Shown: in pieces, positions 50,711 to 64,000 of the stretch
Position numbering within the stretch: the stretch's first letter is position 1
How the letters are laid out: every line of letters begins with the position of its first letter
IMG/VR virus record: IMGVR_UViG_3300033146_001994
Location: 23,548-87,547 of that record
Direction: 5' to 3' (one strand)
Length of the DNA: 64,000 bases
Source: a virus
The notes under the pieces: model-generated
What the model saw: only the letters and a program-made list of their open reading frames with translations
Database searches by the model: none
Told to the model about the DNA's origin: nothing
Program-made: the position numbers and the translations under genes

Positions 50711-50995
50711 ATGGCTAGTGTAAATTTAGTTAAGAAAGAGACCTTAAAGAGTTATTTAACCACCAATGGTCTTAAAGGCAAGAAAGTACTTGCATGGTAT
50801 TTAGCTAAGAACAGTGACAAGAGTTACCGTTATTTAGTAGTAAATGATGCAGTCATAATGGATTGTGCCAGTGATGTGGATACTAACTGTCCAATGGTGG
50901 TAATGCATTATGAAAATCTAGAAACAGGCAGAAGCTGGTGTAGGCTAGAGAATGAATTACAGATAGACACAACTAAAGATGTTGTGGAGTTCTGA
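50711..50995 (+). CDS. Hypothetical protein (first gene of the divergent block)
   Basis: Within ORF 50678-50995; AGGAG precedes ATG 50711. Confidence 0.5.
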   Translation: MASVNLVKKETLKSYLTTNGLKGKKVLAWYLAKNSDKSYRYLVVNDAVIMDCASDVDTNCPMVVMHYENLETGRSWCRLENELQIDTTKDVVEF

Positions 50996-51062
50996 GGTAG
51001 AGGGCACAACAGCCCTTTCCTTAACCGTTGACATTCTATACAAACCTTTTAAGATATATACC

Positions 51063-51269
51063 ATGAAATATGATAAGACAGTATTAGTTATAATCATGCT
51101 AGTAGGCATGACAGTTATGATAAGTGGTACTGTATTAGTCAGTATACATACTGATATAGTATTTTTAATCTTTGCACCTGCAATTGGGGCATTACTATTC
51201 TTCATGTCATTGGAGAATTTTATAAAGATTAAACAGATGGAGAATAGAGACAAAGTAATAAAGATATAG
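51063..51269 (+). CDS. Small two-TM membrane protein
   Basis: MKYDKTVLVIIMLVG... with two hydrophobic helices; part of ORF 50979-51269. Confidence 0.45.
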   Translation: MKYDKTVLVIIMLVGMTVMISGTVLVSIHTDIVFLIFAPAIGALLFFMSLENFIKIKQMENRDKVIKI

Positions 51270-51419
51270 TCTACTCCTATAGACAGTACACCTAAGCATG
51301 TGTATAAACTGCTAAAAAACTCAATAACTTTCCAAGATGTTGAGGACACCAGTTTCTTTAGGTAAAACTAAAGTTTTAGGTGTAAAACACAATTTAACTA
51401 AACTAAGAAAGGACTTATT

Positions 51420-51620
51420 ATGGACATTACAGACGCTTTAACAACATGGTATCATATGGGCTATACAGCTGATTCATACTATGATGAGAATGAAAACTAT
51501 AACATAGACTTTATTGCAAATGGTGAAGTCGTTGGTAGTATTAAAACTGTAAAAGATTCAATTCAATGGGATTATCCTAGAGAATTGTTGCAGTTTAAAA
51601 GCGATTTATTGCAATATTAG
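51420..51620 (+). CDS. Hypothetical protein
   Basis: 66-aa ORF with AAGGA upstream. Confidence 0.45.
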   Translation: MDITDALTTWYHMGYTADSYYDENENYNIDFIANGEVVGSIKTVKDSIQWDYPRELLQFKSDLLQY

Positions 51621-51909
51621 ATAGTAGAAAAAGCTTTTAACATGCTGAGTATAGGGAGGATATAGAACCAGTAATTTCCTCCCTCAATTCAGCTTCATTT
51701 ACCCTCAACCATTTCACACGTTGATATAATAATATGACATAATATCGACTACATATTACAACGCACATTTCATTAATTAACACTTTAAACATACACTTAT
51801 GAAGAATTTAAGAGAATTCAGGTTATCTGAGGAATTTTACGCATTATTAATAATAACGGCGTTTATTTTGCAAGTAGTATTAGCATTATTTATAGCTTAA
51901 TATAGAATA

Positions 51910-52116
51910 ATGTTAGTATTCAGGTTAGAAACTCAGAAAAAAGCGTGGTTAGCCACAGCAGACACTTTAAAGCAGGAACTTTTGAAAGCAGAATTTCCTG
52001 TAAGTATTTCCAAAATCAGAAAGAAGAAAAATAGCATTAGCTACAAATTCATTGGTAAAGGGGATACACAGAGCATAGTAAATTTAATAAACAATTCACT
52101 TAGTAAAAACTTTTAA
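51910..52116 (+). CDS. Hypothetical protein
   Basis: 68-aa ORF. Confidence 0.45.
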   Translation: MLVFRLETQKKAWLATADTLKQELLKAEFPVSISKIRKKKNSISYKFIGKGDTQSIVNLINNSLSKNF

Positions 52117-52128
52117 AAATTAGAAAAC

Positions 52129-52644
52129 ATGACAGAAGAAAAATTAAAATTTCAGAGAGTTTTAAATTCAATTAATTTAGTAACAGAACCAGGCAAATAC
52201 ACTTGTAAAGTAACAAGTGTGCATTTATTTGGTGATAAATACATAGTTAACTTGAATGTAATGAACATGTATAACCGAGCAGAAGCAGTTGAGTTATACA
52301 AGGCAGGAGAGTATGTTGAAGCAGCAAATAAAGCACAAAGTTTCAATGTATGGATTGATGAAGAAACTGGAGAGGTAAGAGGATTTTTACCACAAAAGGG
52401 AGAATATGTAAACATAATCATGGATTATGTTACATTAAAGACTGGTGAAGAAGCTTTGTTAGTAGTTTCAGTAAGTGAGATTAAAGCAAAGAAAACTCGC
52501 AAGCTTGACATTGAAAGTATTATTGATGATATTGATGATGTTGATGATGACGATACTGACAGTGTAGAGTTTGGCACTAAAAATGAACCTCTAGAAAAAG
52601 AAGAAATAGAGGAAAGCATTAAATCTGGAAAAGCTCCTTTCTAG
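52129..52644 (+). CDS. Putative single-stranded DNA-binding protein
   Basis: OB-like beta region, very acidic tail (DDIDDVDDDDTD) ending in -APF. Confidence 0.5.
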   Translation: MTEEKLKFQRVLNSINLVTEPGKYTCKVTSVHLFGDKYIVNLNVMNMYNRAEAVELYKAGEYVEAANKAQSFNVWIDEETGEVRGFLPQKGEYVNIIMDYVTLKTGEEALLVVSVSEIKAKKTRKLDIESIIDDIDDVDDDDTDSVEFGTKNEPLEKEEIEESIKSGKAPF

Positions 52645-52653
52645 TCAATAATT

Positions 52654-52682
52654 AATAGGCACTTTAAGTAGTGCCTATTTTA
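52654..52682 (+). terminator. Intrinsic terminator
   Basis: AATAGGCACT-N6-AGTGCCTATT followed by T's. Confidence 0.7.
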
Positions 52683-52725
52683 TACTTATTTTGAACTTAG
52701 TTTAAACTTATAAACCTTAGAAATT

Positions 52726-53676
52726 ATGAAAAGATATATTGTAGAAGTAGACGAAGACAGAACATGTTGGTATCTAGATGATAAATTACATAGAGAGGAT
52801 GACAAACCTGCTATTGAATCTGCAGATGGCAGTAAAGAATGGTACATTAATGGAAAACATCATAGAGAAGATGACAAACCTGCTATTGAATATTCAGATG
52901 GTAGTAAATATTGGTACATCAATAATAAACGCCATAGAGAAGATGATAAACCTGCAATAATTGATGTAAATGGGGATAGATATTGGTATCTAGATGGTAA
53001 ATTACATAGAGAAAACGATAAACCTGCTGTAATTTATACAAATGGTAAAAAAGAGTGGTATATCAATGGAAAACGTCATAGAGATAATGACAAACCTGCT
53101 ATTATAAATGAAGATGGCAGTAAAGAATGGTACAAAGATGGTAAATATAATAGGGAAGATGATAAACCTACAATTGAATACACTAACGGGGAAAAACGTT
53201 GGACTATGAATAATGAACTAGGAAGACAGAATAACAAACCTGCTATTGAATACCCAAATGGTAGTAAAGAATGGTACGTTAATGGTAAATTACATAGAGA
53301 CAACGATAAACCTGCTATTGAATATGCAGATGGAACAAAAGAATGGTATATTAATGGAAAATTACATAGAGACAATGATAAACCAGCTGCTGAATACTCA
53401 GACGGCAGTAAAGAATGGCATCTTAACGGCAAACTTCATAGAGATAATGACAAACCCGCTATTATAGATGAAGATGGTAGTAAAGATTGGTATGTAAATG
53501 GCAAACATCATAGAGAAAATGGTGCTGCCACAATTCACGCCAATGGCGATAAATTTTGGTTCCTCAATGGTATTGAATATTCTGAAAAAGAATTCAATAA
53601 AAAAGTAAATACTAAAAAACTTACTATTGCAGAAATAGAAGCAGTACTTGGCTATTCAATTAAAATAGTTAGGTAA
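52726..53676 (+). CDS. Tandem-repeat protein (24-aa WYxNGKLHRDxDKPAIEYxDGSKE repeats)
   Basis: About 11 imperfect 72-bp/24-aa repeats of a MORN-like beta-hairpin type. Confidence 0.75.
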   Translation: MKRYIVEVDEDRTCWYLDDKLHREDDKPAIESADGSKEWYINGKHHREDDKPAIEYSDGSKYWYINNKRHREDDKPAIIDVNGDRYWYLDGKLHRENDKPAVIYTNGKKEWYINGKRHRDNDKPAIINEDGSKEWYKDGKYNREDDKPTIEYTNGEKRWTMNNELGRQNNKPAIEYPNGSKEWYVNGKLHRDNDKPAIEYADGTKEWYINGKLHRDNDKPAAEYSDGSKEWHLNGKLHRDNDKPAIIDEDGSKDWYVNGKHHRENGAATIHANGDKFWFLNGIEYSEKEFNKKVNTKKLTIAEIEAVLGYSIKIVR

Positions 53677-53678
53677 TA

Positions 53679-53718
53679 AATAAAAAGCAGGTATAATTTA
53701 AAATATCTGCTTTTTATT
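53679..53718. terminator. Bidirectional terminator-like hairpin
   Basis: AATAAAAAGCAGGTAT-N8-ATATCTGCTTTTTATT. Confidence 0.7.
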
Positions 53719-53774
53719 AAAATAATAAACAACTCTATTTATAGCATATTATCAAATAAGTATTAAAAGTACGT

Positions 53775-53867
53775 TAAGTTCTATATACAGGCTATACAAA
53801 GCTACTAAGTTCTATACACATGCTATACAAAGATATTAAGTTCTAAATTCAAGCTATATAAAGCTAA
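53775..53867. repeat. Three 31-bp tandem direct repeats (non-coding)
   Basis: TAAGTTCTAtatacagGCTATACAAAGctac / TAAGTTCTAtacacatGCTATACAAAGatat / TAAGTTCTAaattcaaGCTATATAAAGctaa. Confidence 0.8.
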
Positions 53868-53933
53868 ATCGTGCGCTATAAACACAGAAAAGAAATAGAA
53901 AAAATTAAACTAATCATTAAAATCAATAATATT

Positions 53934-54332
53934 ATGAAAAATAATAATTTAGAAGTCGCTTTAACAAAAGAGGTATGCATAATCTGCGGTAAAGAAATGG
54001 ATGGTGCAATAGTAATGAACACTTTTTTTACTGAACATGAAGCTAATAAAGTTAAAGAGCTACATAATAAAGCAGTAGGGTTTGCAAAAGAGCCGTGTGA
54101 TAGTTGTAAAGCTGATATGGAGAAAGCATTTATGCTTATAGGATTTAACAAAGAAAAATCTGATTTGAGTAATTTACCTGAGGGTTTTTACAGAACAGGA
54201 CATGTTATTGGAGTAAAAAAGACTAGTGATTTAGTACAGCATTTTATAAAACCTGATTATCCTGAAGCTATGGATAGTGGATATATATTCATGCCTGATA
54301 CAGCTTTAAAAAAATTAGGATTAATAGAATAA
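53934..54332 (+). CDS. Zn-binding hypothetical protein
   Basis: CIICG and CDSC motifs; part of ORF 53871-54332, probable start ATG 53934. Confidence 0.55.
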   Translation: MKNNNLEVALTKEVCIICGKEMDGAIVMNTFFTEHEANKVKELHNKAVGFAKEPCDSCKADMEKAFMLIGFNKEKSDLSNLPEGFYRTGHVIGVKKTSDLVQHFIKPDYPEAMDSGYIFMPDTALKKLGLIE

Positions 54333-54376
54333 TACAGCCTGTAAATATAAAAATAAGAATTAAAATTAAATGAACT

Positions 54377-56512
54377 ATGAAAAAAATTTCGGAATTAATG
54401 CAGAAACAGTTTGACAAGATGTGCCAAACAGGTAAACTTTTTAGGTCAAATTTAACAGGAAAAGAAATATGGAAGCTCTATTTAGAAAACTTTAAAGAGC
54501 ACGACAATCCTATATTTAGAGATCCTGAAAGCTCTATGTATAATTGTAACACTTGTAATAATTTTATCAGAAGATATGGTAATATAGTATCTATAAACAA
54601 AAAGTTAAAGTTAGAAACTATTTTTGATATTGCTATAGACAAAGAAAATGAGTATTATTCTAGTTTTAAAATAATACGTTCAAGACTGAAAGTTAGTAAA
54701 ATAGAAAATATCTTTATTGAATCTTTTAAAGCACTACAAGAATTACCATATGAATCTTGCAAAAAATCACAAGAATCATTCAAACTTGGTATTACAGTCA
54801 ATCATAAAACCTATACTCAAGAAGAAGTTGATAAATTTGGTAAGGTTACATTGGGAAAAGTCTATACATTTAATCATTTTAATTTACAACTTCCTAGTAA
54901 GTTTGTAGATACATCAAATAAAAGTGTAGATACAATAATGGCTGATTTTAAATCTGCATATGATGTATTTAAAAGAGGTATGAAAGAGTTACCTCTAAGC
55001 ACATTACTTGTTGTAAAAGATTTGATTTTACAAGGCTCTTTACTGAATGGTAATGCGTATTTAGACAAGCTAAATACTTTTATAGAGCTTAAAGAACATT
55101 ATAATAAGATAACAACAGAAGAAGCACAAGATGTTTGGTGTTGGGATAAGTCTTATAACTTTAAGCAGGCTAAGTTTAAAAATGAATTAATAGGTGTACT
55201 ATGTACAGAATTGGCTGAGGGCAAAGAACTAAATAAAGTCTGTAAAGATTGGAATATAAGAATTGACCCTGTCAATTACATGAAAGCAACTTCGCCAATC
55301 ACAAAAACTCAAAAAGAAGATGCTCAAAAGTTTGTTGAAGAAAATGGTTATATTGATTCTTTTGATAGAAGATTTGCTAATATTGAAGATGTAAAAGTTG
55401 AAGAAATTAAGCATATTAATATCGAAAAGTCTAGTTTAGGGAATGTTTCAATATTTGATAATGTAAAAGTTACTCCATCTACAAGGCATAAGAAGTCTAA
55501 GTTTGATAATATAGAAGAAGTAACTATTGATAAATTTATGGCTGATATTTTGCCTACATGTTCATCTGTTGAATTATTGTTATTAAATAGATTTGAAAAT
55601 AACTTAGTATCTTTAACTACTTCAAACAAGTTACGTTCTAAACCAATGTTCAAATGGGATAATAATTTTTCATGGACTTATAATGGCAATTTAACAGGTA
55701 AATCTGAAATAAAAGAAGCTGTGAAAACACATAAAGGAAAGGTAGATGGTGTATTAAGATTTAGTATTATGTGGAGTGAAGATTCAAATGACAATTCAGA
55801 TTTAGATGCACGTTGTAATATCAATAACCGTAGAATCTATTATTTACATAAGATTGATAGTATTTCACAAGGGCAATTAGATGTAGATATTACAGAACCT
55901 GATACATATAAATATAAAAATTTACCTGTCATTGAAAATATAACATTTCCATCAATTGAAAAGTTAAACAACAGTATTTGTAAATTCAGAGTACATCAGT
56001 TTAGCAAAAAAGGTAAAGGTAACTTTAGAGCGGAAATAGCGTTTAATAATGAGATTTTTCAATATGAATATAAAAATGATTTTTCTAATCACACCTTTAT
56101 AGATGTAGCAGAAGTTAAAATTAAAAACAGTAAATTTTCAATTAAACATATTTTGCCTGAAATATCTTTGTCAAAATCTTTGTGGGGTTTAGATACTAAC
56201 ACATTTCATAAAGTAAATCTTATGTGTCTATCTCCAAATTATTGGGGAAAGAATGCAGTAGGACATAAACACTATTTTTTCATGCTTAACAGATGTAAAT
56301 CTCCTGATAATACAAGAAGCTTTCATAATGAAAACTTAAATTCAGAATTAACAAAACATAGAAAAGTCTTAGATGTTTTAGGAGAAACTACTAAATTAAA
56401 GCCATCTGCAGAAAATTACTTAGCAGGAGTAGGATTTAATTCTACTGTTAAAGATGAAATTGTCTTGCGCTTAAAAGGCAATTTTAATAGAATAATAAAA
56501 GTTAAACTTTAA
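54377..56512 (+). CDS. Conserved large-phage hypothetical protein (711 aa)
   Basis: N-terminal YNCNTCNNFI; C-terminal LRFSIMW..DLDA..GQLDVD..ENI (YfaP/DUF2135-like) motif. Confidence 0.6.
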   Translation: MKKISELMQKQFDKMCQTGKLFRSNLTGKEIWKLYLENFKEHDNPIFRDPESSMYNCNTCNNFIRRYGNIVSINKKLKLETIFDIAIDKENEYYSSFKIIRSRLKVSKIENIFIESFKALQELPYESCKKSQESFKLGITVNHKTYTQEEVDKFGKVTLGKVYTFNHFNLQLPSKFVDTSNKSVDTIMADFKSAYDVFKRGMKELPLSTLLVVKDLILQGSLLNGNAYLDKLNTFIELKEHYNKITTEEAQDVWCWDKSYNFKQAKFKNELIGVLCTELAEGKELNKVCKDWNIRIDPVNYMKATSPITKTQKEDAQKFVEENGYIDSFDRRFANIEDVKVEEIKHINIEKSSLGNVSIFDNVKVTPSTRHKKSKFDNIEEVTIDKFMADILPTCSSVELLLLNRFENNLVSLTTSNKLRSKPMFKWDNNFSWTYNGNLTGKSEIKEAVKTHKGKVDGVLRFSIMWSEDSNDNSDLDARCNINNRRIYYLHKIDSISQGQLDVDITEPDTYKYKNLPVIENITFPSIEKLNNSICKFRVHQFSKKGKGNFRAEIAFNNEIFQYEYKNDFSNHTFIDVAEVKIKNSKFSIKHILPEISLSKSLWGLDTNTFHKVNLMCLSPNYWGKNAVGHKHYFFMLNRCKSPDNTRSFHNENLNSELTKHRKVLDVLGETTKLKPSAENYLAGVGFNSTVKDEIVLRLKGNFNRIIKVKL

Positions 56513-56524
56513 AACTTAAAAATT

Positions 56525-56893
56525 ATGTACAAAGAAGCAACTAGATTGAAATTAAGATTTACAACTGAAAGAGGAATCTTATCATTAGAGCAATTATGGG
56601 ATTTATCATTATCTACTTTAGATGATTTAGCTGTACTTTTAGAAAAGGCTTATAAAGAAAGTGGTAAAAAATCCTTTCTAGTTAAGAAGTCTAAAAAAGA
56701 TAAAGAGCTGAAACTAAAGTTCGATATAGTACTAGACATTCTTACCACTAAAGTAGAAGAATCAGAAGCAAGTAAAAACTCTTTAGAAATAAAAGAGTAT
56801 AATGAAAAGATTCTTGCTTTAATTGCAGAGAAACAAGAAGAATCCTTAAAGGATAAAAGTATTTCTGATTTAAAGGCTCTTTTAAAGAAATAA
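56525..56893 (+). CDS. Conserved phage coiled-coil protein
   Basis: KLRFTTERGILSLEQLWDL motif; adjacent to the 711-aa gene. Confidence 0.6.
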   Translation: MYKEATRLKLRFTTERGILSLEQLWDLSLSTLDDLAVLLEKAYKESGKKSFLVKKSKKDKELKLKFDIVLDILTTKVEESEASKNSLEIKEYNEKILALIAEKQEESLKDKSISDLKALLKK

Positions 56894-56922
56894 TAAAGGG
56901 CTTATAAATTGACATGTAATTT

Positions 56923-57010
56923 CAGACAGATAAATGGAAGTTGTGGCTTAGTGGTGCAAATACACTATAACCTATAGTAGCTACTTCAGGTTCAACCCCT
57001 TTCTGTCTGG
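56923..57010 (+). ncRNA. tRNA-like structured element (degenerate)
   Basis: 8-bp terminal stem CAGACAGA/TCTGTCTG closing 87 nt, with an AGG-TTCAACC-CCT T-arm-like hairpin next to the 3' stem. No clean D-arm or anticodon arm. Confidence 0.3.
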
Positions 57011-57048
57011 ACTTATGTTTAATAAAATAGTAATTTAACTTTAAAATC

Positions 57049-57396
57049 ATGAAAAAAAATAAAGCTATGGATTTAAATTGTCCTTATTGCGGTGCAGAAT
57101 TAGAAATATGTCATGATGATGATTTTGGATATGAAGTAGGTGTTGAACATGAAATGGAATGTAGTAAATGTAATAAACTATTTATATTTAAAACATCAAT
57201 TTCTTTTTATTATAAAGCTAGAAAAGCAGACTGTCTAAATGGTGCTGAGCATAATTATAAAAAAGTAGCAACATTTCCAGAGGAATTCTCTAAAATGAAA
57301 TGTGAAGTTTGTGGTGCTGAAAGAGAATTTACTGATGAAGAACGTGTAAAGTTCGGTATTGGAACAAAAGAAAGTTATTTTGAAAGAATAAAATAG
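57049..57396 (+). CDS. Zinc-ribbon protein
   Basis: CPYC, CSKC and CEVC motifs. Confidence 0.65.
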   Translation: MKKNKAMDLNCPYCGAELEICHDDDFGYEVGVEHEMECSKCNKLFIFKTSISFYYKARKADCLNGAEHNYKKVATFPEEFSKMKCEVCGAEREFTDEERVKFGIGTKESYFERIK

Positions 57397-57472
57397 TATT
57401 ATTACTAATAGCTCTGATAAGATATGTTGCGACCATTGAAAACTAAATTATCAATATTGTAAAATCATAAAT

Positions 57473-57661
57473 ATGAAATACACAATAGAACAGAAAAAAC
57501 CACATAAAGACCAAATAATAGTTTTTAAAGCAAATCACGGTACATTCCCTGAGATTGGCATATGGTCTGATTTTGAAGATAACCTAAGTGAGGTTTATAT
57601 ACCTGCAAATGATGATGTGGAATTAGTTAAAAACATTGAATGGTGGATGCCAATAGAATAG
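57473..57661 (+). CDS. Cassette ORF, hypothetical (ends WWMPIE)
   Basis: 62 aa with a DUF551-like W-M-P C-terminus. Confidence 0.5.
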   Translation: MKYTIEQKKPHKDQIIVFKANHGTFPEIGIWSDFEDNLSEVYIPANDDVELVKNIEWWMPIE

Positions 57662-57785
57662 TATTATTGGTGTATGAACAATAGCCGATAAAAAACACAA
57701 CATTGCGATTACATATAAAGATTATTAACCAAATAATAGCTTAACATAAAGCACCTTAGCAGGCTATTATTTTTATTTATTGTTA
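57662..57785 (+). repeat. attC-like site (degenerate left end)
   Basis: Arms AATAGCC (57680-86) / GGCTATT (57762-68); ends in TGTTA. Confidence 0.55.
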
Positions 57786-57799
57786 GGGTGCATTATTTT

Positions 57800-57976
57800 A
57801 TGTTACAAACTTTAATTGATATATGTTTTGGAATAATAGGTATAGTAATAATAATACTATTTACAATATTATATCAAAATATTACAGGAGAAAATGCTGA
57901 ATTTGCAATGTGGATAGTTAATGTTATGATTAGCATTATTGTGGTGCTAAGACAATTTAAACGAAATGCACCCTAA
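57800..57976 (+). CDS. Cassette ORF, small two-TM protein
   Basis: Flanked by a perfect 13-bp IR GTTAGGGTGCATT (57782-94) / AATGCACCCTAAC (57965-77); the stop is the TAA of TAAC. Confidence 0.6.
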   Translation: MLQTLIDICFGIIGIVIIILFTILYQNITGENAEFAMWIVNVMISIIVVLRQFKRNAP

Positions 57977-58097
57977 CGGTGTGGATATGGGCTGATTGCC
58001 CTTGAAATTTAGTAAATAACTTAAAATTGAAATGCAGTGGAAAATAATAAAGAGAATGTAAATAAAAAGAACGGCAATTTGCCTATATTTAGTATTA
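57974..58097 (+). repeat. attC-like site, 124 bp
   Basis: TAAC..ATATGGGCTGATTGCC..loop..GGCAATTTGCCTATAT..ATTA. Confidence 0.75.
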
Positions 58098-58423
58098 GTG
58101 GCAGTTTTTTGCTACGAATAGCACTAAGCCCATTTTTATTTCTATGGGGAGTTTTTATGTTAATGGTGGGAACATTATTTCCACTACCTTTATTGGTTAT
58201 ATTTAGCACGATGGGGCTTATAGTAACACCATTTGTTTGGTTATTGCGAAAAAGTGGTACAGACATAAAATACCCTGAACCATTTATGGCAAAAGGAGAA
58301 GATTATGGAAATGAAAAAAACATAATGCGTGACCATTTATTTGGAGCAACTATATATGTATGGGGGGCATTTGCAGTAGCATACTACTATGTAAAAACAG
58401 GTGAAGTATTTACTGTAGGTTAA
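58037..58423 (+). CDS. Cassette ORF, membrane protein; frame begins inside the attC-like site
   Basis: Hydrophobic segments; cassette IR ATTAGTGGCAGTTT (58094-107) / AAATTGCTATTAAT (58422-35). Confidence 0.6.
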   Translation: MENNKENVNKKNGNLPIFSISGSFLLRIALSPFLFLWGVFMLMVGTLFPLPLLVIFSTMGLIVTPFVWLLRKSGTDIKYPEPFMAKGEDYGNEKNIMRDHLFGATIYVWGAFAVAYYYVKTGEVFTVG

Positions 58424-58495
58424 ATTGCTATTAATGGCTCTGTTATACATTATTGTAACAAATCACTATAATATTTAATAAAAAAACAGAATAAA

Positions 58496-58687
58496 ATGGT
58501 AGGAAAATATGTAATCATAGACTTAAGAAGCATAGACCATGTGAAAGACCAAATGGTCTATATGACAGACCAAAACGGCAAAATTATCCTCTGTAACACT
58601 GAGATAGATGCCGCCATAACTTGCGAAATGCTTGGATTTAAAAATGTTTGGATTTGCAAATTGATTTTTAATTATGTAAATATTTGA
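58496..58687 (+). CDS. Hypothetical protein
   Basis: 63-aa ORF after a half site at 58432. Confidence 0.5.
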   Translation: MVGKYVIIDLRSIDHVKDQMVYMTDQNGKIILCNTEIDAAITCEMLGFKNVWICKLIFNYVNI

Positions 58688-58730
58688 TAAGATGAAAAAA
58701 ATATAATTAATTATAATATAGGAGGATTTT

Positions 58731-58994
58731 ATGAATAAAAAAGATACTAAAAGACTTGAAAACATAAAGAAAAGATTAGGTGTAACAACAAAAGCAGAAA
58801 ATGTAGTAGTGGAGCATTTATTCAAACGTGACTTAAATAGAAGTATATTACTTGAGAGTTATGGTGATATTAAAGAAAAAGACGGGTGGATTCAAATAAA
58901 TGCAATAACAAATAAACATTCCTATTTATTTAGTATATCAGTAAGTGAACTAGAAAAGGGAGACGAAAGAGAGTTATGGCACAAAATTGATTAA
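58731..58994 (+). CDS. Hypothetical protein
   Basis: 87-aa ORF with AGGAGG upstream. Confidence 0.55.
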   Translation: MNKKDTKRLENIKKRLGVTTKAENVVVEHLFKRDLNRSILLESYGDIKEKDGWIQINAITNKHSYLFSISVSELEKGDERELWHKID

Positions 58995-59102
58995 TTGATA
59001 TAATGGAATACAGCTATATGTAAGGTTTTGATAAAAAGTCGTTTTAATGTTTTTTATTTATTATTAGCGTTTTGTTTTATTAATAACTTAAAATTGAAAT
59101 CA

Positions 59103-59291
59103 ATGAAAGAAATACTAAATACTAATCAAATATTAAAAGCAACAATTTGGTTAAAAGAACATAGAAAACACGTTTATGATATGGTGTGTAATTCAAAAAA
59201 TGAATATCCACCAACAGATAACAAAGATAAGAATAATCCTAATTTATGGAAACCTGAACATTGGAAATGGTTTTTGCATAATGCAGGGTAA
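59103..59291 (+). CDS. Cassette ORF, hypothetical
   Basis: MKEILNTNQ...; the stop is the TAA of TAAC at 59289. Confidence 0.55.
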   Translation: MKEILNTNQILKATIWLKEHRKHVYDMVCNSKNEYPPTDNKDKNNPNLWKPEHWKWFLHNAG

Positions 59292-59403
59292 CGGTTTGTA
59301 TATAAAACGGTGCAAAACGAAATGTAATAGAAAACAGAGAATTAAATAATTAAATATAAACTAAATAAAAGACCACAACAGCATTGTTTTATATACTTTG
59401 TTA
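59289..59403 (+). repeat. attC-like site, 115 bp
   Basis: TAACggttt GTATATAAAACGGTGC..GCATTGTTTTATATAC ttt GTTA. Confidence 0.8.
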
Positions 59404-59418
59404 CGTGGCGTTAAGAAA

Positions 59419-59733
59419 ATGGGCGATTATATTGATAATGTTGTTATTAGGCTAAAAAGAAAATATAGCAAGGACGAACTTGTGCAAAGTATGCTTAAGG
59501 AGCAAAGCCAACTTGAATTAGAAAATGGTATACTTAAAAGTGAAAAAGATGAATTGGAATATGAACTAAACCAAATAAAAAAAATGGATAGCAAAACCAA
59601 ACGAGATTTTCACCAAACTTTATATGTTAAAAACACTAAGAAAGAATTAAAAGCTTTGCGCGAATTATGCAAGAAACTTAAAAAAGAAAACCAAGAACTT
59701 TGGGGTAAGTTGGCAAAAGCTAATGCCACATAA
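59419..59733 (+). CDS. Cassette ORF, coiled-coil protein
   Basis: IR GTTACGTGGCGTTA (59400-13) / TAATGCCACATAAT (59721-34). Confidence 0.6.
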   Translation: MGDYIDNVVIRLKRKYSKDELVQSMLKEQSQLELENGILKSEKDELEYELNQIKKMDSKTKRDFHQTLYVKNTKKELKALRELCKKLKKENQELWGKLAKANAT

Positions 59734-59856
59734 TAGATGGTAATACGGTGTTGGTGCGAAAATGAAAGCGCTTACTTAAATTAACCACAAAATTAAGAAT
59801 GAAATATGGAAATTAAATATTAACCACATACTCGCACTACATTATATTTTATGTTG
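59731..59856 (+). repeat. attC-like site, 126 bp
   Basis: TAAT..AATACGGTGTTGGTGCGA..TCGCACTACATTATATT..GTTG. Confidence 0.75.
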
Positions 59857-59882
59857 TGGTGCGTTTATTTAAAATTATAGCA

Positions 59883-60059
59883 ATGCCAAAAGGAAAACCG
59901 AAAAGTAAATTTGTATTTGATATAGACCCAAAAACAGGGAAAGAAAAGGGTTGTGAATACGAAAATGGAACTTGGTGTGATTTACCTAAATATAAAAGAT
60001 GTGAACATTGTATTAGGCTAAACGACGGAAGTAAGGCTTGTTATGTTACTTCTCTTTAA
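59883..60059 (+). CDS. Cassette ORF, small Cys-rich protein
   Basis: IR GTTGTGGTGCGTT (59853-65) / AATGCACCACAAC (60058-70). Confidence 0.6.
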   Translation: MPKGKPKSKFVFDIDPKTGKEKGCEYENGTWCDLPKYKRCEHCIRLNDGSKACYVTSL

Positions 60060-60066
60060 TGCACCA

Positions 60067-60192
60067 CAACGGTGTGAATATGGCAAGTAGCCAACAATAG
60101 AATGAGAATTTTTAAAATAAATATAATGTTTAACCTTTCGCAAATAGCTCCAAAAAGACCACATAGCAGGCTATTTGCTATATTTTATGTTA
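60067..60192 (+). repeat. attC-like site, 126 bp
   Basis: CAACggtgtg AATATGGCAAGTAGCC..GGCTATTTGCTATATT ttat GTTA. Confidence 0.8.
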
Positions 60193-60207
60193 TGTGGCGT
60201 TGAAATT

Positions 60208-60471
60208 ATGAAAATAACTAAAATTTATTACAATTTTGTGCAAGTTCAATTTGAAGATGGGGCAGGAGAAGATTACATGATAGCGGAAGTAGGAAAACCA
60301 TTTTTATCTTATAATGGTGGTGATGAATATCAAGACAAAAAAATTATCAATATCACAGAACACAGACCCGCGGGTGAAGGCGATAAATGGTTTTACGATA
60401 TTGAATTAGAAGATGACAAAATTGTTAGAGTGTTTAATATTAATTCAGTATTTTATTCAAATGCCACATAA
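60208..60471 (+). CDS. Cassette ORF, hypothetical (HRPAGEGDKWFYDI)
   Basis: IR GTTATGTGGCGTT (60189-201) / AATGCCACATAAC (60460-72); stop lies in TAAC. Confidence 0.65.
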   Translation: MKITKIYYNFVQVQFEDGAGEDYMIAEVGKPFLSYNGGDEYQDKKIINITEHRPAGEGDKWFYDIELEDDKIVRVFNINSVFYSNAT

Positions 60472-60592
60472 CAGTTCTGATAAGATACGTTGCAAATACA
60501 AAGAATTGATTTATAAATTTAATAAGATTTAAATATGAAATACTTACGTAACAAATTAGCACAATTTAAGCAATGGATTTCATCTATTGTTA
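60469..60592 (+). repeat. attC-like site, 124 bp
   Basis: TAACagttctg ATAAGATACGTTGC..GCAATGGATTTCAT ctatt GTTA; left part nearly identical to 57406-57430. Confidence 0.7.
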
Positions 60593-60876
60593 AGTTTCGT
60601 TTTTGTAAAATTACAAGTGAAACTCAAAAATCAAAAAGAATTAAATCATTATTTGAAACTTATTTCGATGGATGTTACGGAGTGGATGCACAAGAAACCG
60701 TATCAAATACTTATGCAATGGGAATATGTAAGTTAGAATATAGTGATAGTACAAATATACTTACTGTGCATCTACGTAGACCCGGATTATTAATTGGAAA
60801 ACAAGGCAGAATTATTGAAGAAGTTGAGAAATATTTAAAATGTAAAATCAAAATAATTGAGATAACACATTTTTAA
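60535..60876 (+). CDS. Cassette ORF with KH-like (ribosomal S3-type) domain
   Basis: LTVHLRRPGLLIGKQGRIIEEVEKYL; IR GTTAAGTTTCGTTT (60589-602) / AAATGAAACTTAAC (60875-88). Confidence 0.65.
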   Translation: MKYLRNKLAQFKQWISSIVKFRFCKITSETQKSKRIKSLFETYFDGCYGVDAQETVSNTYAMGICKLEYSDSTNILTVHLRRPGLLIGKQGRIIEEVEKYLKCKIKIIEITHF

Positions 60877-60884
60877 ATGAAACT

Positions 60885-61008
60885 TAACGGTGTAGCGTAT
60901 GAAATGTAGGCGATTAAAACAACTACTTTTCATATTTGCACCAAACTAAATTAAAAGATGAAACGATTATTAACCGACATACACGCCTATATTTTATACG
61001 CATTGTTA
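60885..61008 (+). repeat. attC-like site, 124 bp
   Basis: TAACggtgta GCGTATGAAATGTAGGCG..CGCCTATATTTTATACGC att GTTA. Confidence 0.85.
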
Positions 61009-61030
61009 GGCGTATGTGCTTTAAATTAAA

Positions 61031-61306
61031 ATGATTATGAATAAGTCAATAGAAATAAAACATTTCAATTTAATAGATTACAATATTCTTTTAAAAGTTG
61101 TCACTGAATATGTAAAGCAATATCAAATAAGTAGAAATAAATTTGAATATGAAAAACATATATTTGACTTAACAGATACCGTATATGGTTTGAAATGTCA
61201 TAAAAATCCTGTTAAGATTTCAATAGATAATCATTGGAAATCGTTTTGGGTTAAAGTAAGAGAAACAAAAACTAAATATAAATTTGATATATGGTATGCT
61301 TCTTAG
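61031..61306 (+). CDS. Cassette ORF, hypothetical
   Basis: IR GTTAGGCGTATGTGCT (61005-20) / AGCATTACGACTAAT (61305-19). Confidence 0.6.
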   Translation: MIMNKSIEIKHFNLIDYNILLKVVTEYVKQYQISRNKFEYEKHIFDLTDTVYGLKCHKNPVKISIDNHWKSFWVKVRETKTKYKFDIWYAS

Positions 61307-61315
61307 CATTACGAC

Positions 61316-61372
61316 TAATGGTTAGTATAAGATGCAACGCAGTGACCGTAGGGTGCATTTTATACATTGTTA
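61316..61372 (+). repeat. attC-like site, short class, 57 bp
   Basis: TAATggtta GTATAAGATGCA-acgcagtgaccgtaggg-TGCATTTTATAC att GTTA. Confidence 0.8.
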
Positions 61373-61418
61373 GCCTTAGTATGGCTTAATTTAGTAATAA
61401 CTTAAATAAATAGAAATA

Positions 61419-61778
61419 ATGAATAGAGAAATAAAATTTAGAGCATGGGATAAGCAAAATAACGCATTTGCTGAATTATATACAAATGTAGATTGTATGA
61501 ATAATTTAGATAATGATAATGTTGCAATTATGCAGTATTCTGGTTTAAAAGACAAAAATAATAAGGAAATATTTGAAGGTGATATTATTAAAATCCCTGA
61601 TGATTATGATACTTACGGAATATTTGCAGGGGAAATATACGAAATATATTTTGCTTATGGTGGATTTAGATTAAAACCTAAAAACTCAAAAAGGCGTGGG
61701 AATTGGCTTGAAGATGAAAAAGAATTAGAAGTGATAGGTAATATTTATGAAAATAAAGACTTATTACCTACTTCTTAA
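61419..61778 (+). CDS. YopX family protein (cassette)
   Basis: MNREIKFRAWDK..MQYSGLKDKNNKEIFEGDII..EVIGNIYEN; IR GTTAGCCTTAGTAT (61369-82) / ATATTAAGGCTAAC (61778-91). Confidence 0.85.
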   Translation: MNREIKFRAWDKQNNAFAELYTNVDCMNNLDNDNVAIMQYSGLKDKNNKEIFEGDIIKIPDDYDTYGIFAGEIYEIYFAYGGFRLKPKNSKRRGNWLEDEKELEVIGNIYENKDLLPTS

Positions 61779-61787
61779 TATTAAGGC

Positions 61788-62071
61788 TAACGGATTATGG
61801 CTATGTATAGTGCCGGCAAATTGCACGGAACTTTAAATTATTAACTTAAATTAGTGAGCGATGAAAATAATTATAAAACCTGTAAATGATATAGAAAAAA
61901 AAGATTTCCCAAAAAGTGTTGTTTCAATGCAATTAGGAATATCTCTTTTTATATTAGAACAATCTGATATTGAAGAAGTAATTAAGAAATTAAGCAAATA
62001 TAGTGAACGACAAAAAAACACTGACCATTTAGAAAACACCGAACAAAAGGCATTACATATAGATGATATTA
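61788..62071 (+). repeat. attC-like site with enlarged coding loop, 284 bp
   Basis: TAAC..CTATGTATAGTGCC..~230 nt..GGCATTACATATAG..ATTA. Confidence 0.6.
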
Positions 62072-62274
62072 TGTTGTGTCTTGAATTAAGATTAAATATA
62101 GATACATGGGGGAGTTATAAAAAAGGCGATATAGAAGTATTTTACATAAGAATTTGCGATGAACAAAACGGCTTAGTTAGATATCCAATAGATAAAAGAT
62201 GGGATATTATTAGTTGTAGTTTAGTGAATGCCCCTAACAGTTCTAATGAGAATAGTAACCGAAATATAATATGA
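61861..62274 (+). CDS. Hypothetical protein, apparent loop-cassette fusion
   Basis: The first ~69 codons lie within the attC-like site (..EQKALHIDDIMLC..), the rest in the next cassette. Confidence 0.55.
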   Translation: MKIIIKPVNDIEKKDFPKSVVSMQLGISLFILEQSDIEEVIKKLSKYSERQKNTDHLENTEQKALHIDDIMLCLELRLNIDTWGSYKKGDIEVFYIRICDEQNGLVRYPIDKRWDIISCSLVNAPNSSNENSNRNII

Positions 62275-62372
62275 TGGTTTACTGAATATAAAATAAAATA
62301 AATATTGTAAAATAGTATATGATATAAAAATAATGTATATATTTACAGTAAATAATATATAAAAAGTACACC

Positions 62373-62996
62373 ATGAAAACAAATCAAATAATGGTTAGAG
62401 AAGAAAAGCAATTTCTACAACGGACAAAAGATGGTTATTTTAGTGCTACCACACTTTTGAACTATTGGAATACAAATAACCCAAAAAAAAGAAAAGAAAT
62501 GGGTATTTACAAAAGAAATAAAAGTACAAAGGAATTTATTAAACATTTGCAAAAAGAGAATATTGAAAACCCTTACATTTCATCAAATAAGGGAACTTGG
62601 CTTCATCCAAAATTATTTATCGATTTTGCAATGTGGGTTTCTGTTGAGTTTAAAAGTAAGGTTATTGATTATGTCTTGGATGGACTTATATTTAATCGGA
62701 ATGAAGCAGGAGATTATTATAAAGAAATGTGTGCGACTATTATGGATACTCATATTGAATTTTTCGGAACAAAACCAAATCCGAAAATATACAGTGAAGA
62801 AGCTAATAGAATTACAAAAATATTAAAATTACATAAAAAGGATAGAAACCTAATGACCGAAAATGAATTGAATACCATAACTGTATTGCAAAAAACAAAC
62901 GTTTTACTATTGCGAAAAAAGGTAGGGAAAGATGCAAGAATAAAGCAATTAATGCTTCAAGCAGAAATATTAAATATTGACGACCATTCTTTGTAG
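62373..62996 (+). CDS. KilA-N domain DNA-binding protein
   Basis: QRTKDGYFSATTLL..GTWLHPKLFIDFAMWVSVEFKSKV. Confidence 0.85.
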   Translation: MKTNQIMVREEKQFLQRTKDGYFSATTLLNYWNTNNPKKRKEMGIYKRNKSTKEFIKHLQKENIENPYISSNKGTWLHPKLFIDFAMWVSVEFKSKVIDYVLDGLIFNRNEAGDYYKEMCATIMDTHIEFFGTKPNPKIYSEEANRITKILKLHKKDRNLMTENELNTITVLQKTNVLLLRKKVGKDARIKQLMLQAEILNIDDHSL

Positions 62997-63086
62997 CCTT
63001 GAATGGAGAGCTAATAAATTACATAGAATTAAATAGATATTATTAACCACAGATTAAGCAATTAACCGCTATCATTTTTATTTATT

Positions 63087-63245
63087 GTTAAGGATTGTTT
63101 ACTTATGGAAAAAGAATAAAAAAAAGTAAAAAAAGTATTTCAACAGCACATCATTCAATATTAATTGGAGATGGATTATTTACAGATAAATCTTATCATT
63201 TATTGGTGAATAAGAATGGTGTAAAAATTGACAAAATTGCTTAAC
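63087..63245 (+). pseudogene. Decayed cassette (ORF stops after MEKE)
   Basis: Bounded by GTTAAGGATTGT and AAATTGCTTAAC; ATG 63105 is followed by an early TAA. Confidence 0.4.
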
Positions 63246-63298
63246 GTGCCGATTATATGGCACGTATGAGGAACGAATATGGGCTATATAATGTGTTG
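63242..63298 (+). repeat. attC-like site, short class, 57 bp
   Basis: TAACgtgccg ATTATATGGCACGTAT-gaggaacga-ATATGGGCTATATAAT gt GTTG. Confidence 0.8.
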
Positions 63299-63413
63299 TG
63301 TGTCTGTGGGCGGGGATTATAGCACAAAGTTTATTTTGCGAAACAAGAATTAAAAAAGAAAAAAAGGGAAGGCGAAAACTTTATAGAGTAGCCAAATAAA
63401 TAAATTTATAAAA

Positions 63414-63632
63414 ATGGATAATTCATTTTACGAAAGACTTCTAACAGAAGCACAAGAGTTGGCAACAAAAACAAATGCCTTAAATGACTTTATGAGAACG
63501 CAAAAATTCGTTGATTTAGATAGGGTAAACAAAAATTTACTTTACAAGCAATCGAGATTAATGAATGAGTATTTACAAATACTTGGGCAACGAATTGAAT
63601 TGTTTGGCGAGAAGTTTTCTTTTAAGAAGTAG
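63414..63632 (+). CDS. Small helical phage protein (resembles crAss001_48-like family)
   Basis: ERLLTEAQEL..KTNALNDF..LLYKQSRLMNEYLQILGQRI pattern; imperfect IR GTTGTGTGTCTGTGGG / CCCAAATAACGCACAA. Confidence 0.55.
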   Translation: MDNSFYERLLTEAQELATKTNALNDFMRTQKFVDLDRVNKNLLYKQSRLMNEYLQILGQRIELFGEKFSFKK

Positions 63633-63714
63633 TGCGGTGGGCTTTTTATTTTTAACCCCAAATAACGCACAAAGTTAGAAACGTGGTACAGTGTTAGCAT
63701 TGGTTATACGCATT

Positions 63715-63796
63715 GTTAGGCACTGTGCCACCTTTAAACAGGAGCAAGTGTTTAGCAATTAACGAATATAATATCATTTTTGGCATTGTGCCTAAC
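63715..63796 (+). mobile_element. Minimal ORF-less cassette (82 bp)
   Basis: IR GTTAGGCACTGTGCCA / TGGCATTGTGCCTAAC (14/16) encloses only 50 bp. Confidence 0.65.
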
Positions 63797-63918
63797 GGTG
63801 TGAATATATTGTTGGTGCGATTTATAAAACGATTGCCTGACATCAGAAAAACATTAAATGTGAAACGAGAAAATTTAAAATATAGTAATAACCAAGCACT
63901 GCAATATATTTGTTGTTG
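63793..63918 (+). repeat. attC-like site, 126 bp
   Basis: TAACggtgtg AATATATTGTTGGTGC..GCACTGCAATATATT tgtt GTTG; the next cassette begins GTTGTGGTGCGTT, identical to 59853. Confidence 0.8.
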
Positions 63919-63941
63919 TGGTGCGTTAAATTCTTAATATT

Positions 63942-64000
63942 ATGAGAAAATTTAATTTAGAAGCGAAAATAACAATTAGTGTTCATACTGTTGTTGATGC
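63942..64000 (+). CDS. Next cassette ORF (truncated by window end)
   Basis: ATG 63942 MRKFNLEAKITISVHTVVD... Confidence 0.45.
   Translation, partial: MRKFNLEAKITISVHTVVD

Follow-up and report, generated by a model that had tools for sequence, protein, structure and literature searches.

The textbook example of a tyrosine recombinase that works on a folded single strand is integron recombination, in which an IntI-specific helix reads bulged bases to choose the strand. In inverted-integrase integrons of the Treponema type, intI points in the same direction as the cassettes; the enzymes are IntI proteins and the sites classical attC sites. A functional fold on one strand only is also found in the ends of IS200/IS605 elements, the attP site of CTX phage, and the hairpin promoters of phage N4. 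Qi et al. (2023; PMC9892861) found recombination by IntI1 of bottom strands that software had predicted for phage attC sites, one of them from a Polaribacter phage. T4-type PeSLs are described in PMC4122927 as promoter plus terminator motifs that recombine by homology.

The window (the whole 64,000-nt stretch analyzed) ends in an array of about 20 small ORFs, all on the + strand, with attC-like sites between them (57397..64000; locus L001). Past the window end, the array runs over a 63-bp terminal repeat to positions 64-818 of the 87.5-kb phage genome. As in integron attC sites and CALINs, including the phage CALINs of PMC9892861, the cassettes are bounded by ...AAC and GTT... with complementary ends, and a second imperfect inverted repeat surrounds a variable loop. 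On the + strand, the sites read ...YAAC, a 5-6 nt spacer, a stem arm, the loop, the other arm, a 2-4 nt spacer, and GTTR.... The two fixed G.T pairs of the 16-20 bp stem stand 5 nt from each other, and one further fixed G.T pair occurs between the cassette ends. Sites range from 57 to ~135 nt and fall into a short class (~57 nt, loops of 9-17 nt) and a long class (~125 nt, loops of 61-77 nt). The following sites and cassettes were delimited.

57662..57795, + strand: site c, long; the 3' arm ends GTTAGGGTGC and the 5' arm is degenerate.
57782..57977, + strand: cassette with a perfect 13-nt inverted repeat, GTTAGGGTGCATT (57782-57794) / AATGCACCCTAAC (57965-57977).
59285..59407, + strand: site h; AAC, 5-nt spacer, 16-bp stem 59298-59313 / 59381-59396 with two G.T pairs, 3-nt spacer, GTT.
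59727..59866, + strand: site i; the inner stem is similar to the downstream end sequence, GTTGTGGTGCG.
59853..60070, + strand: cassette; end repeat GTTGTGGTGCGTT / AATGCACCACAAC with G.T at position 11.
60063..60196, + strand: site j; stem 60077-60092 / 60169-60184 with two G.T pairs 5 nt apart.
60189..60472, + strand: cassette; end repeat GTTATGTGGCGTT / AATGCCACATAAC with G.T at position 11.
60464..60597, + strand: site k; the loop holds the ATG and 20-residue leader of ORF 60535-60876, and the 3' arm and GTTA lie within coding sequence.
60589..60888, + strand: cassette; end repeat GTTAAGTTTCG / TGAAACTTAAC.
60881..61012, + strand: site l; 18-bp stem 60895-60912 / 60984-61001 with two G.T pairs.
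61316..61376, + strand: short site of the 57-bp class; stem GTATAAGATGCA / TGCATTTTATAC with one G.T pair.
61369..61791, + strand: cassette with the YopX-like ORF 61419-61778; end repeat GTTAGCCTTAGTAT / ATATTAAGGCTAAC.
63236..63300, + strand: short site; the apical loop GAGGAACGA is also found in two sites of locus L172.
63705..63806, + strand: mini-cassette with no 40-aa ORF; closed by an imperfect inverted repeat of 26 nt, GTTAGGCACTGTGCCA / TGGCATTGTGCCTAAC.
63791..63928, + strand: site q2; ends GTTGTGGTGCGTT, pairing with AATGCACCACAAC at genome positions 203-216, beyond the window.

An earlier note on this DNA had claimed that the hairpins are built to fold on the + strand, where their mismatches become G.T wobbles, and this claim held under scoring that is blind to mismatch type. 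Both of its quoted examples are present (GTATATAAAACGGTGC / GCATTGTTTTATATAC at 59298-59313 / 59381-59396; GCGTATGAAATGTAGGCG / CGCCTATATTTTATACGC at 60895-60912 / 60984-61001). Local inverted-repeat alignment, with an equal penalty for every mismatch type so that G.T was not favored, gave 9 mismatches in five clean inner stems (h, j, l, m, and s), and all 9 place a 5'-arm G opposite a 3'-arm T. In a second count with a Watson-Crick-only hairpin finder, also blind to mismatch type, 15 hairpins of the array, some of them chance hits, had 18 G.T versus 2 A.C, compared to 39 versus 39 in 118 hairpins of the remaining 76.5 kb of the genome. Minimum-free-energy folds with G.U forbidden gave 35 G.T versus 5 A.C in 104 intergenic pieces from this array and 7 related loci, compared to 93 versus 91 in 600 coding windows and 94 versus 85 in 600 shuffled windows. 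The wobble bias reported earlier for the cassette-end repeats was likewise recovered: among GTT...AAC pairs, the 10 in which 12 or more of 14 bases are complementary contain 8 G.T and 0 A.C, the full set of 21 with 11 or more of 14 contains 13 versus 3, and 48 control pairs contain 20 versus 20.

These counts bear on whether strand-biased mutation (C to T on the + strand) or base composition could have produced the G.T excess as a by-product. The + strand, which is the coding strand and, from its GC skew, probably also the lagging-strand template, does show skews of about +0.2 (GC) and +0.15 (AT), and coding controls fold slightly better on it. However, the even controls from the same genome (39 versus 39, 93 versus 91, and 20 versus 20) contradict such a cause, the wobbles lie at fixed columns amid covarying pairs, and in bacterial relatives they occur on the antisense strand. 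We therefore give this explanation very little credence.

Folding of both strands agreed with the counts. Among 16 curated sites, the + strand was the stabler in 16/16 with DNA parameters (mean -11.96 versus -10.19 kcal/mol) and in 15/16 with RNA parameters (-27.5 versus -22.0 kcal/mol). Against the explanation favored below, the - strand folds nearly as well with DNA parameters (-10.2 versus -12.0 kcal/mol), and the slight lean of coding controls to the + strand counts the same way. The GNA mini-hairpins that had also been offered as strand evidence did not survive: the strings C-GCA-G, C-GTA-G, and G-GAA-C do occur in the two 57-bp sites, but the argument fails because the motif is common genome-wide (21 per kb on the + strand), and in nine further sites of relatives, short or mid-length, the loops hold it equally often on both strands (2 on +, 2 on -).

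A structural alignment of 16 sites from 4 phage or phage-like records showed that pairing is maintained while sequence varies. In this alignment, 95.0% of pairing cells are paired compared to 70.7% in shuffles (0/500 shuffles reach 95.0%), pairing falls to 33-47% when partners are slid, and compensatory changes occur in 14 of the 16 stem pairs. Three column pairs carry a fixed G.U, namely 10/151 (15/16 sites), 23/142 (12/16), and 28/137 (15/16), and nearly every departure at these columns is G.U rather than another mismatch. A compensated change at both ends was also found in homologues of cassette 60589..60888 in loci L171 and L172 (GTTATGCCTCG / TGAGGCATAAC). AAC and GTT are invariant in 16/16 aligned sites, as in the attC outer repeat RYYYAAC...GTTRRRY, with following bases that fit GTTR and only loosely RRY; the 16-bp stem, conserved in structure and variable in sequence between sites, corresponds to the inner imperfect repeat (L box). 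Unlike in attC, no bulged strand-marking bases were found in the clean stems, where fixed G.T pairs take their place. Additional spacer bases occur on the AAC (5') arm, whereas in a classical control array, the IntI integron of Shewanella phage M16-3, the 3' arm shows 1-3 bulged bases; this difference stands against the favored explanation. The anatomy, asymmetry, and covariation of the sites can be taken as shown, and the pairing and compensatory changes mark the structure as selected.

No tyrosine, serine, or Y1 recombinase was found in the 87.5-kb genome, where PF00589 and the family profile had no match in searches run with a positive control. No adjacent IntI with the IntI-specific insertion was found, and no Y1 transposase of the kind that serves IS200/IS605 elements, which, like the CTX attP site and the N4 promoters, share with this array a functional fold carried by one strand only but differ in motifs and layout. 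Among eight related virus records, mostly fragments, no such recombinase was found in seven; these absences, in the phage itself and in its relatives, count against the explanation favored below. The eighth encodes a 268-aa Xer-like enzyme directly after its array, with a start codon 50 nt past the last ...GCCTAAC. This enzyme belongs to a family of 3017 proteins at E<=1e-20, with homologues of 37-55% identity in Flavobacteriaceae and other genomes. The relatives' enzymes scored 130-208 bits against the integron integrase model TIGR02249 (cut-off 265), whereas 4 of 5 tested enzymes from fetched genome loci passed the XerA-type model NF040815 (230-236 versus 220); the remaining enzyme, which comes from the phage-like contig L239, scored 122.5. 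Aligned to an IntI, the relatives' enzyme shows a 28-residue gap that corresponds to a missing IntI segment. The suggestion of a mechanistically different recombinase system was thus partly right: the enzyme in relatives is not an IntI and falls below the TIGR02249 cut-off, but the polarity of the sites is canonical.

Cassette borders could be read from isolates of a Polaribacter phage. Around the array, Freya_1, 5, 6, 8, 9, and 10 share 99.8-100% identity, but the number of small ORFs that precede the integrase ranges from 0 to 12. Each of the three indel borders falls directly after ...AAC, and what follows is either the next unit or ACCCCTATAAC...ATG of the integrase. The 304-nt unit present in Freya_10 and absent from Freya_9 begins with a hairpin and ends ...TTGTTGCTAAC. 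The AAC that marks these borders belongs to the 5' arm of the hairpin on the coding strand and adjoins the integrase; motif and position are those of classical cleavage. The borders, read in the Freya isolates only, agree with the integron pattern of exchange at AA|C / G|TT and of new cassettes beside the recombinase. Sediment metagenome contigs also break at cassette ends, which points to shuffling in the population, and one joins 60888 (the C of TTAAC) to 59024, although such joints, called in reads at 80% likeness with short sides, need caution. Hairpin modules are also found again ahead of other ORFs, with the break at GTTA, and therefore AAC is not the sole exchange point; the site k module, for example, recurs ahead of unrelated ORFs in L175 and L177.

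The polarity of the sites was scanned in 60 bacterial loci, those of at least 8 kb among 80 fetched loci. Oriented AAC...GTT hairpins were found in 24 of these 60; none was found in the other 36, which counts against the favored explanation. In the 24 loci, the wobble strand runs 5' to 3' toward the recombinase gene at 48 of 49 oriented sites. The wobbles of the M16-3 control, a single array, are on the bottom strand (15 G.T versus 1 A.C), which likewise runs toward the recombinase. In the relatives, then, the strand favored by wobbles is the one that points to the recombinase, as in integrons. Relative to both flanking ORFs, the wobble strand in bacterial loci is antisense at 22 sites, sense at 8 (6 of them from contig L239), and mixed or neither at 19, whereas in virus loci it is sense at 20, antisense at 1, and mixed at 3. 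The wobble strand is thus antisense to the genes in bacterial arrays of this family, as in classical integrons, and not in the virus loci, where the array genes would lie on the recombined strand. Hence the claimed sense-strand folding, opposite to attC, is correct relative to the genes but not relative to the recombinase. It is likely that in the phages the genes, and not the recombination sites, have been turned round compared to bacterial arrays, so that the hairpins fold on the gene-coding strand. In most bacterial loci, the recombinase and cassette genes are co-directional with the array downstream, as in inverted-integrase integrons.

The same comparison helps to separate DNA from RNA as the substrate, both of which had been put forward for the sense strand. 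The hairpins could be RNA elements in a sense transcript of several cistrons, for example points of RNase III-type processing from one cistron to the next, with the ends of each cistron paired, G.U pairs that come from RNA folding, and shuffling by homologous recombination, as in T4-type PeSLs. The + strand is indeed the sense strand of the phage genes, its advantage is larger with RNA parameters, z-scores of the best sites are -2.4 to -4.6, and the succession of lower stem, asymmetric internal loop, and upper stem recalls the RNase III sites of phage T7. RNA is nevertheless unlikely as the selected substrate, because bacterial arrays of the same family and motif have the wobble strand antisense to genes (22 versus 8). 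The wobble strand instead tracks the side of the recombinase (48/49), and the Freya indels are exact at AAC, adjoining the integrase. Sigma-70-like promoters (40 versus 47.1 +/- 6.3 in shuffles), terminator-like sites (2 versus 1.7), and the Bacteroidota -7 motif TAnnTTTG (7 on +, 11 on -) were not enriched, which also argues against RNA elements. PeSLs (PMC4122927) and this array have in common that modules made of small orphan phage genes are exchanged at short conserved stem-loop motifs in intergenic DNA. PeSLs join an early promoter to a terminator stem-loop and are near-identical between copies; the stems here differ between sites but covary, the ends pair across each gene, and relatives have a tyrosine recombinase at the array end. 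We consider a purely RNA-based origin improbable; the hairpins could add an RNA role in phages beside a DNA role.

Alternatively, the - strand could be the substrate, which would be classical relative to the genes, with the fixed G.T read as A.C mismatches that, with the unpaired spacer, approximate extrahelical bases. The - strand still folds, the pairs beside AAC/GTT would then open into an unpaired central spacer like that of classical attC, and the extra spacer bases would come to lie on the 3' arm, matching the classical control. The bottom-strand recombination by IntI1 described in PMC9892861 points the same way. By contrast, the wobbles of the classical control are on the recombined strand (15 versus 1), departures at the fixed columns are nearly all G.U, and the Freya borders correspond to AAC in the + strand 5' arm beside the integrase, which on the - strand would be GTT in the 3' arm. 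On balance, we doubt that the - strand is the substrate.

We therefore favor, as the probable explanation, that the sites belong to an integron-like system common to Bacteroidota and their phages, and that this region is an orphan, recombinase-less array of that cassette system of Bacteroidota chromosomes and phages. The + strand would fold as single-stranded DNA in vivo, and a small tyrosine recombinase of the Xer-like kind would exchange it at the AAC of the 5' arm. Because the phage genome has no such enzyme of its own, the host or a co-infecting phage would presumably provide it in trans. The wobble pairs, by making one strand fold better, would probably be the strand mark, replacing the bulged bases of classical attC in a system whose Xer-like family lacks the IntI-type insertion to read bulges. 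With the cassette genes on the recombined strand, the whole phage array would read as one sense operon. More tentatively, and with slightly less than even confidence, we propose a second integron-like single-strand lineage in Bacteroidota and their phages, in which a small Xer-like enzyme that lacks the IntI insertion acts on a strand chosen by three fixed G.T pairs rather than by bulged bases. Its phage genes would have been turned onto the recombined strand, on the lagging-strand template, with sites foldable at each replication round, and orphan arrays would be served in trans by the host enzyme, so that phage and host would draw on one cassette pool.

Array logic with a plain Xer-like enzyme and wobble pairs as the sole strand mark would differ from the textbook integron, and would offer a direct test of the minimum needed for single-strand site recognition. 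Searches that require IntI would largely miss such arrays, in this phylum and in lytic-looking phages. The system would also explain the swapping of small accessory genes in marine flavobacterial phages, since between isolates of one phage the difference amounts to 0 to 12 cassettes. Integrases in phages of this kind, taken as a sign of lysogeny in PMC8776804, need not mean lysogeny. Within the cassettes of the present array, the ORFs fill the available length, and the TAA stop codon sits inside the terminal ...TAAC.

The hairpins lie in the last part of the window (bases 23548-87547 of an 87,547-bp record with a 63-bp direct terminal repeat). The genome has a G+C content of 29%, carries nearly all of its genes on the + strand, where GC skew and AT skew are both positive, and encodes a portal, a major head protein, a GroEL-type chaperonin and a KilA-N protein. 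The hairpins belong to the following feature.

~57397 to window end, across the terminal repeat to genome 818; + strand; array of ~20 small ORFs with structured intergenic pieces between them

Read on the + strand, a site opens with ...YAAC, which is often the source of the upstream ORF's TAA stop. A 5-6 nt spacer (e.g., GGTGTG or GGTTT) leads into a stem of 16-20 bp, whose 5' arm is followed by a variable A+T-rich loop, the other arm, a 2-4 nt spacer and GTTR.... The sequence after GTT pairs with the ...AAC beyond the next ORF and not with the adjacent ...AAC. Ten such cassette-end pairs have at least 12 of 14 complementary bases, as in GTTAGGGTGCATT (57782) and AATGCACCCTAAC (57965), where 13 nt pair perfectly. 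Both ends of a cassette have changed together between phages, being GTTAAGTTTC / GAAACTTAAC here and GTTATGCCTC / GAGGCATAAC in the homologous cassettes of two other loci, L171 and L172. This layout of paired cassette ends and hairpin sites is the same as that of integron cassettes and attC sites.

Mismatches in these hairpins read mostly as G.T on the + strand, although G.T was scored like any other mismatch in the local-alignment, hairpin-finder and fold counts. All 9 mismatches in five clean stems place G on the 5' arm against T on the 3' arm in local alignments. A Watson-Crick-only hairpin finder returned 18 G.T versus 2 A.C mismatches in the array and 32 versus 1 in the related array L172, compared to 39 versus 39 in the other 76.5 kb of the genome. 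Folds of 104 intergenic pieces with G.U forbidden gave 35 G.T versus 5 A.C, compared to 93 versus 91 in coding windows and 94 versus 85 in shuffles. The cassette-end repeats show the same asymmetry (8 versus 0 in the 10 best pairs and 13 versus 3 in all 21; control, 20 versus 20). These counts bear out the excess that the earlier note had tallied by hand in hairpin arms and cassette ends. The balanced controls imply that the excess is real and is a product of neither base composition nor mutation, the strand-biased form of which that note had named as the alternative.

Conservation of the wobbles was followed in related arrays. The ORF at 60535-60876, which encodes a cassette protein, was used to find eight IMG/VR loci of 27-32% G+C with like arrays, and 16 long-class sites (~125 nt) from the own genome, L172, L177 and the phage-like contig L239 were aligned. 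RNAalifold gave a 16-bp stem with compensatory double changes in 14 pairs. On this structure, 95.0% of cells pair versus 70.7% in shuffles (0/500 match it), and only 33-47% pair in a partner-sliding control. G.U occupies three columns in 15/16, 12/16 and 15/16 sequences. One of these columns is the pair that follows AAC/GTT, and the other two lie within the stem, 5 nt from each other (TAT[G]NNNN[G]T over A[T]NNNN[T]ATA). A separate fixed G.T pair, at position 11, belongs to the cassette-end repeat. Because these wobbles are held between covarying neighbors, they are a product of selection and not of decay.

Folding energies agree with the mismatch counts. DNA parameters give the + strand the greater stability in 16/16 curated sites (-11.96 versus -10.19 kcal/mol) and in 89/104 intergenic pieces, an advantage that is clear yet modest; with RNA parameters, the gap is larger (-27.5 versus -22.0). 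Coding controls also slightly favor the + strand in folding energy. The GNA mini-hairpins that had been proposed as a further + strand signal did not hold up: the strings are present, but the motif occurs 21 times per kb, and the loops of other sites carry 2 on the + strand versus 2 on the - strand.

No tyrosine, Y1 or serine recombinase was found in the own genome in searches run with a positive control. A tyrosine recombinase is present in one of eight related records (G001), and no member of its family was found in the own genome either. The G001 recombinase (268 aa) has its start codon 50 nt past the array's last ...GCCTAAC on the same strand, scores highest on a XerA-type model, and falls under the integron-integrase cut-off. 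A 28-residue stretch of an IntI is missing from it, and we take this stretch to be the insertion specific to IntI. At E<=1e-20, the protein collection contains 3017 members of the family, and at least 579 relatives were confirmed in bacterial genomes (579/600 pattern matches), mostly Bacteroidota; homologues at 37-41% identity occur in cultured North Sea flavobacterial phages, and a single-protein scan of viral_contigs with the recombinase returned only the self-match. Of five genome-locus enzymes tested, four score above the XerA-type cut-off but below that for integron integrases, and the fifth, from L239, is under both cut-offs. The enzyme family is distinct from IntI and is absent from this phage.

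The relation of the hairpins to the recombinase was read in bacteria, where 60 loci of at least 8 kb were scanned among 80 kept (of at least 579 relatives). Oriented AAC...GTT hairpins adjoin the recombinase gene in 24 of these loci, and no oriented site was found in the other 36. In Aquimarina, Aequorivita, Gillisia and an Ignavibacteria genome, the array lies downstream of the recombinase with its genes on the recombinase strand. Mismatches on that strand are A.C, and the opposite strand bears the phage motif, e.g., GTATAT[G]AAAA[G]TAGGCGA. Across the 24 loci, the wobble strand runs 5' to 3' toward the recombinase in 48/49 sites. Relative to both flanking ORFs, that strand is antisense at 22 sites and sense at 8, of which 6 lie in L239, with 19 undecided; the virus loci have 20 sense, 1 antisense and 3 undecided. 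Hairpins selected as sense-RNA structures would not lie on the antisense strand in bacteria, which argues against that explanation. The sense-strand substrate (single-stranded DNA or RNA) proposed in the earlier note stands as to the strand and is unlikely as to RNA; the sense strand is the folding strand, most likely as single-stranded DNA.

The same finder was applied to the IntI array of Shewanella phage M16-3 as a classical control. It returned 15 G.T versus 1 A.C on the cassette-antisense strand, and this wobble-rich strand runs toward intI, with bulged bases on the 3' arm. Which strand recombines in classical integrons is reportedly known from work by Bouvier in 2005 and MacDonald in 2006. 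The M16-3 wobbles lie on that strand, so that a wobble excess marks the recombined strand in a system where it is known. The reaction polarity is canonical, and the inversion concerns the genes. The earlier suggestion of a mechanistically different recombinase system is thus right for the enzyme of the relatives, which is not IntI, and wrong for the polarity of the reaction.

Cassette borders could be read in a set of cultured phages.

Polaribacter phage Freya_1 to Freya_10 (L260-L267); MT732463-MT732472

The ten isolates vary in length, and the integrase position moves accordingly. Near the array, the flanks of Freya_1, 5, 6, 8, 9 and 10 are 99.8-100% identical, and 0 to 12 small ORFs stand between a conserved gene and the integrase across the compared isolates. 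All three indel borders read fall directly after ...AAC, followed by the next unit or by the ACCCCTATAAC...ATG of the integrase. A 304-nt unit that is present in Freya_10 and absent in Freya_9 adjoins the integrase, starts with the spacer and hairpin, carries its ORF's ATG in the loop, and ends in ...TTGTTGCTAAC. These borders imply that the unit is a hairpin plus its downstream ORF and that the exchange point is AAC, on the 5' arm of the coding-strand hairpin. The geometry is that of the classical reaction with the genes turned round. In the window's own population, sediment metagenome contigs span single cassettes and end at their borders, and in one contig 60888, which is the C of TTAAC, is joined to 59024. 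All of these contig calls were made at 80% likeness and are weak alone.

Some modules break elsewhere. Site k (60464-60597) stands before unrelated ORFs in two further loci, L175 and L177, with the break at GTTA, so that a second exchange point, or homologous exchange, must be at work too. In a co-travel test of hairpins with upstream and downstream ORFs, 5 similar site pairs were found among 122, 0 with homologous flanking ORFs. The GTTA breaks are one of several misfits. The extra spacer bases of the phage sites are on the AAC arm, whereas the extra bases of the classical control are on the 3' arm; the - strand folds nearly as well with DNA parameters; and 36/60 bacterial loci are without an oriented site. 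Because of these misfits, use of the - strand, with the wobbles being designed A.C mismatches, retains some weight beside the more probable folding of the sense strand.

Several recurrent features accompany the sites.

Window 60472-60597; L175 5941-6058; L177 3100-3229; L171 5919-6078: leader-in-loop site type, shared 20-residue leader
L172 1410-1440, 6502-6530, 5640-5700; L177 ~5253; window 59040-59062: 'empty cassettes'
Window 60152-60200; L172 1871-1918: loop copies of ...AAC end
Window 58018-58030, 59084-59096, 61395-61406, 61845-61856: motif ATAACTTAAA
Window 63268-63276; L172 933 and 9483: apical loop GAGGAACGA, wobble strand

In one site type, an ATG and a conserved leader of 20 residues (MKYLRNKLAQFKQWI.SIV) lie in the loop. 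The leader continues across the 3' arm and GTTA and enters ORFs unrelated between phages, so that exchange at GTTA would give in-frame fusions. 'Empty cassettes' have a GTT... end and a complementary ...AAC end with only CGTTTTAATG, which holds ATG and TAA, between them. At several sites, the loop just 5' of the 3' arm repeats the ...AAC end of the downstream cassette, e.g., CCACATAAC before GTTATGTGG, giving the GTT end a second, local partner. Several cassette start codons have motif ATAACTTAAA 10-25 nt before them, and a metagenome contig links two cassettes within it (58003 to 61387). Short-class sites (~57 nt) have a common 9-nt apical loop, GAGGAACGA, which was not found in site context among the fetched bacterial loci.

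Transcriptional roles were also considered. The idea that the 3' arm carries a Bacteroidota -7 promoter was dropped, as TAnnTTTG occurs 7 times on the + strand and 11 times on the - strand of the array, and Sigma-70 promoter and terminator scans showed no enrichment. Virion RNA polymerase hairpin promoters were set aside, since both the Freya borders and the polarity of the sites relative to the recombinase favor recombination; for phi14:2, the available text describes transcription of only single-stranded DNA and no early promoter motif (10.1101/2020.03.07.982082). The PeSLs of T4-type phages are, in the accessible part of the account, a known phage analogue of stem-loop module shuffling (PMC4122927), and the array here differs in having no enriched promoter or terminator signal.

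Seventeen phage CALINs, including one from a Polaribacter phage, are listed in the accessible portion of a published survey, where the sites tested were recombined by IntI1 (Qi et al., 2023; PMC9892861). The Freya and Ingeline integrases have been read as signs of a temperate life style, and the words integron, cassette, indel and hairpin are absent from the main text as available (Bartlau et al.; PMC8776804). In a literature search, supplements aside, no account was found in which such arrays have reversed cassette genes, fixed wobbles or a recombinase of the Xer-like type. In viral_contigs, a 5'-arm 14-mer had only chance matches, and blastn of the own genome against the loci from that scan gave no match. 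The 711-aa protein encoded upstream of the array led to relatives that share at most 46% identity and have none of these sites, and the sole blastn match of the array among GenBank phages is a YopX-like gene. A distant phage of 27% G+C (L148 2980-4900) has motif TATAACAG at almost every gene junction of a small-ORF region; Shine-Dalgarno sites are present there, and attC-like hairpins are lacking.

Elsewhere in the genome, the intergenic piece before the array (window 56894-57048) has a G+C-richer stretch that is tRNA-like by eye, and ARAGORN called no tRNA in 50000-64000, this stretch included. One ORF of 4391 residues (window 31307-44482) lies downstream of the structural genes. The DNA polymerase I gene appears as two ORFs (own genome, 2444-3679 and 4225-4941), and an intron or the decayed remains of a homing element may lie in the gap of ~550 nt between them, which contains short broken ORFs.
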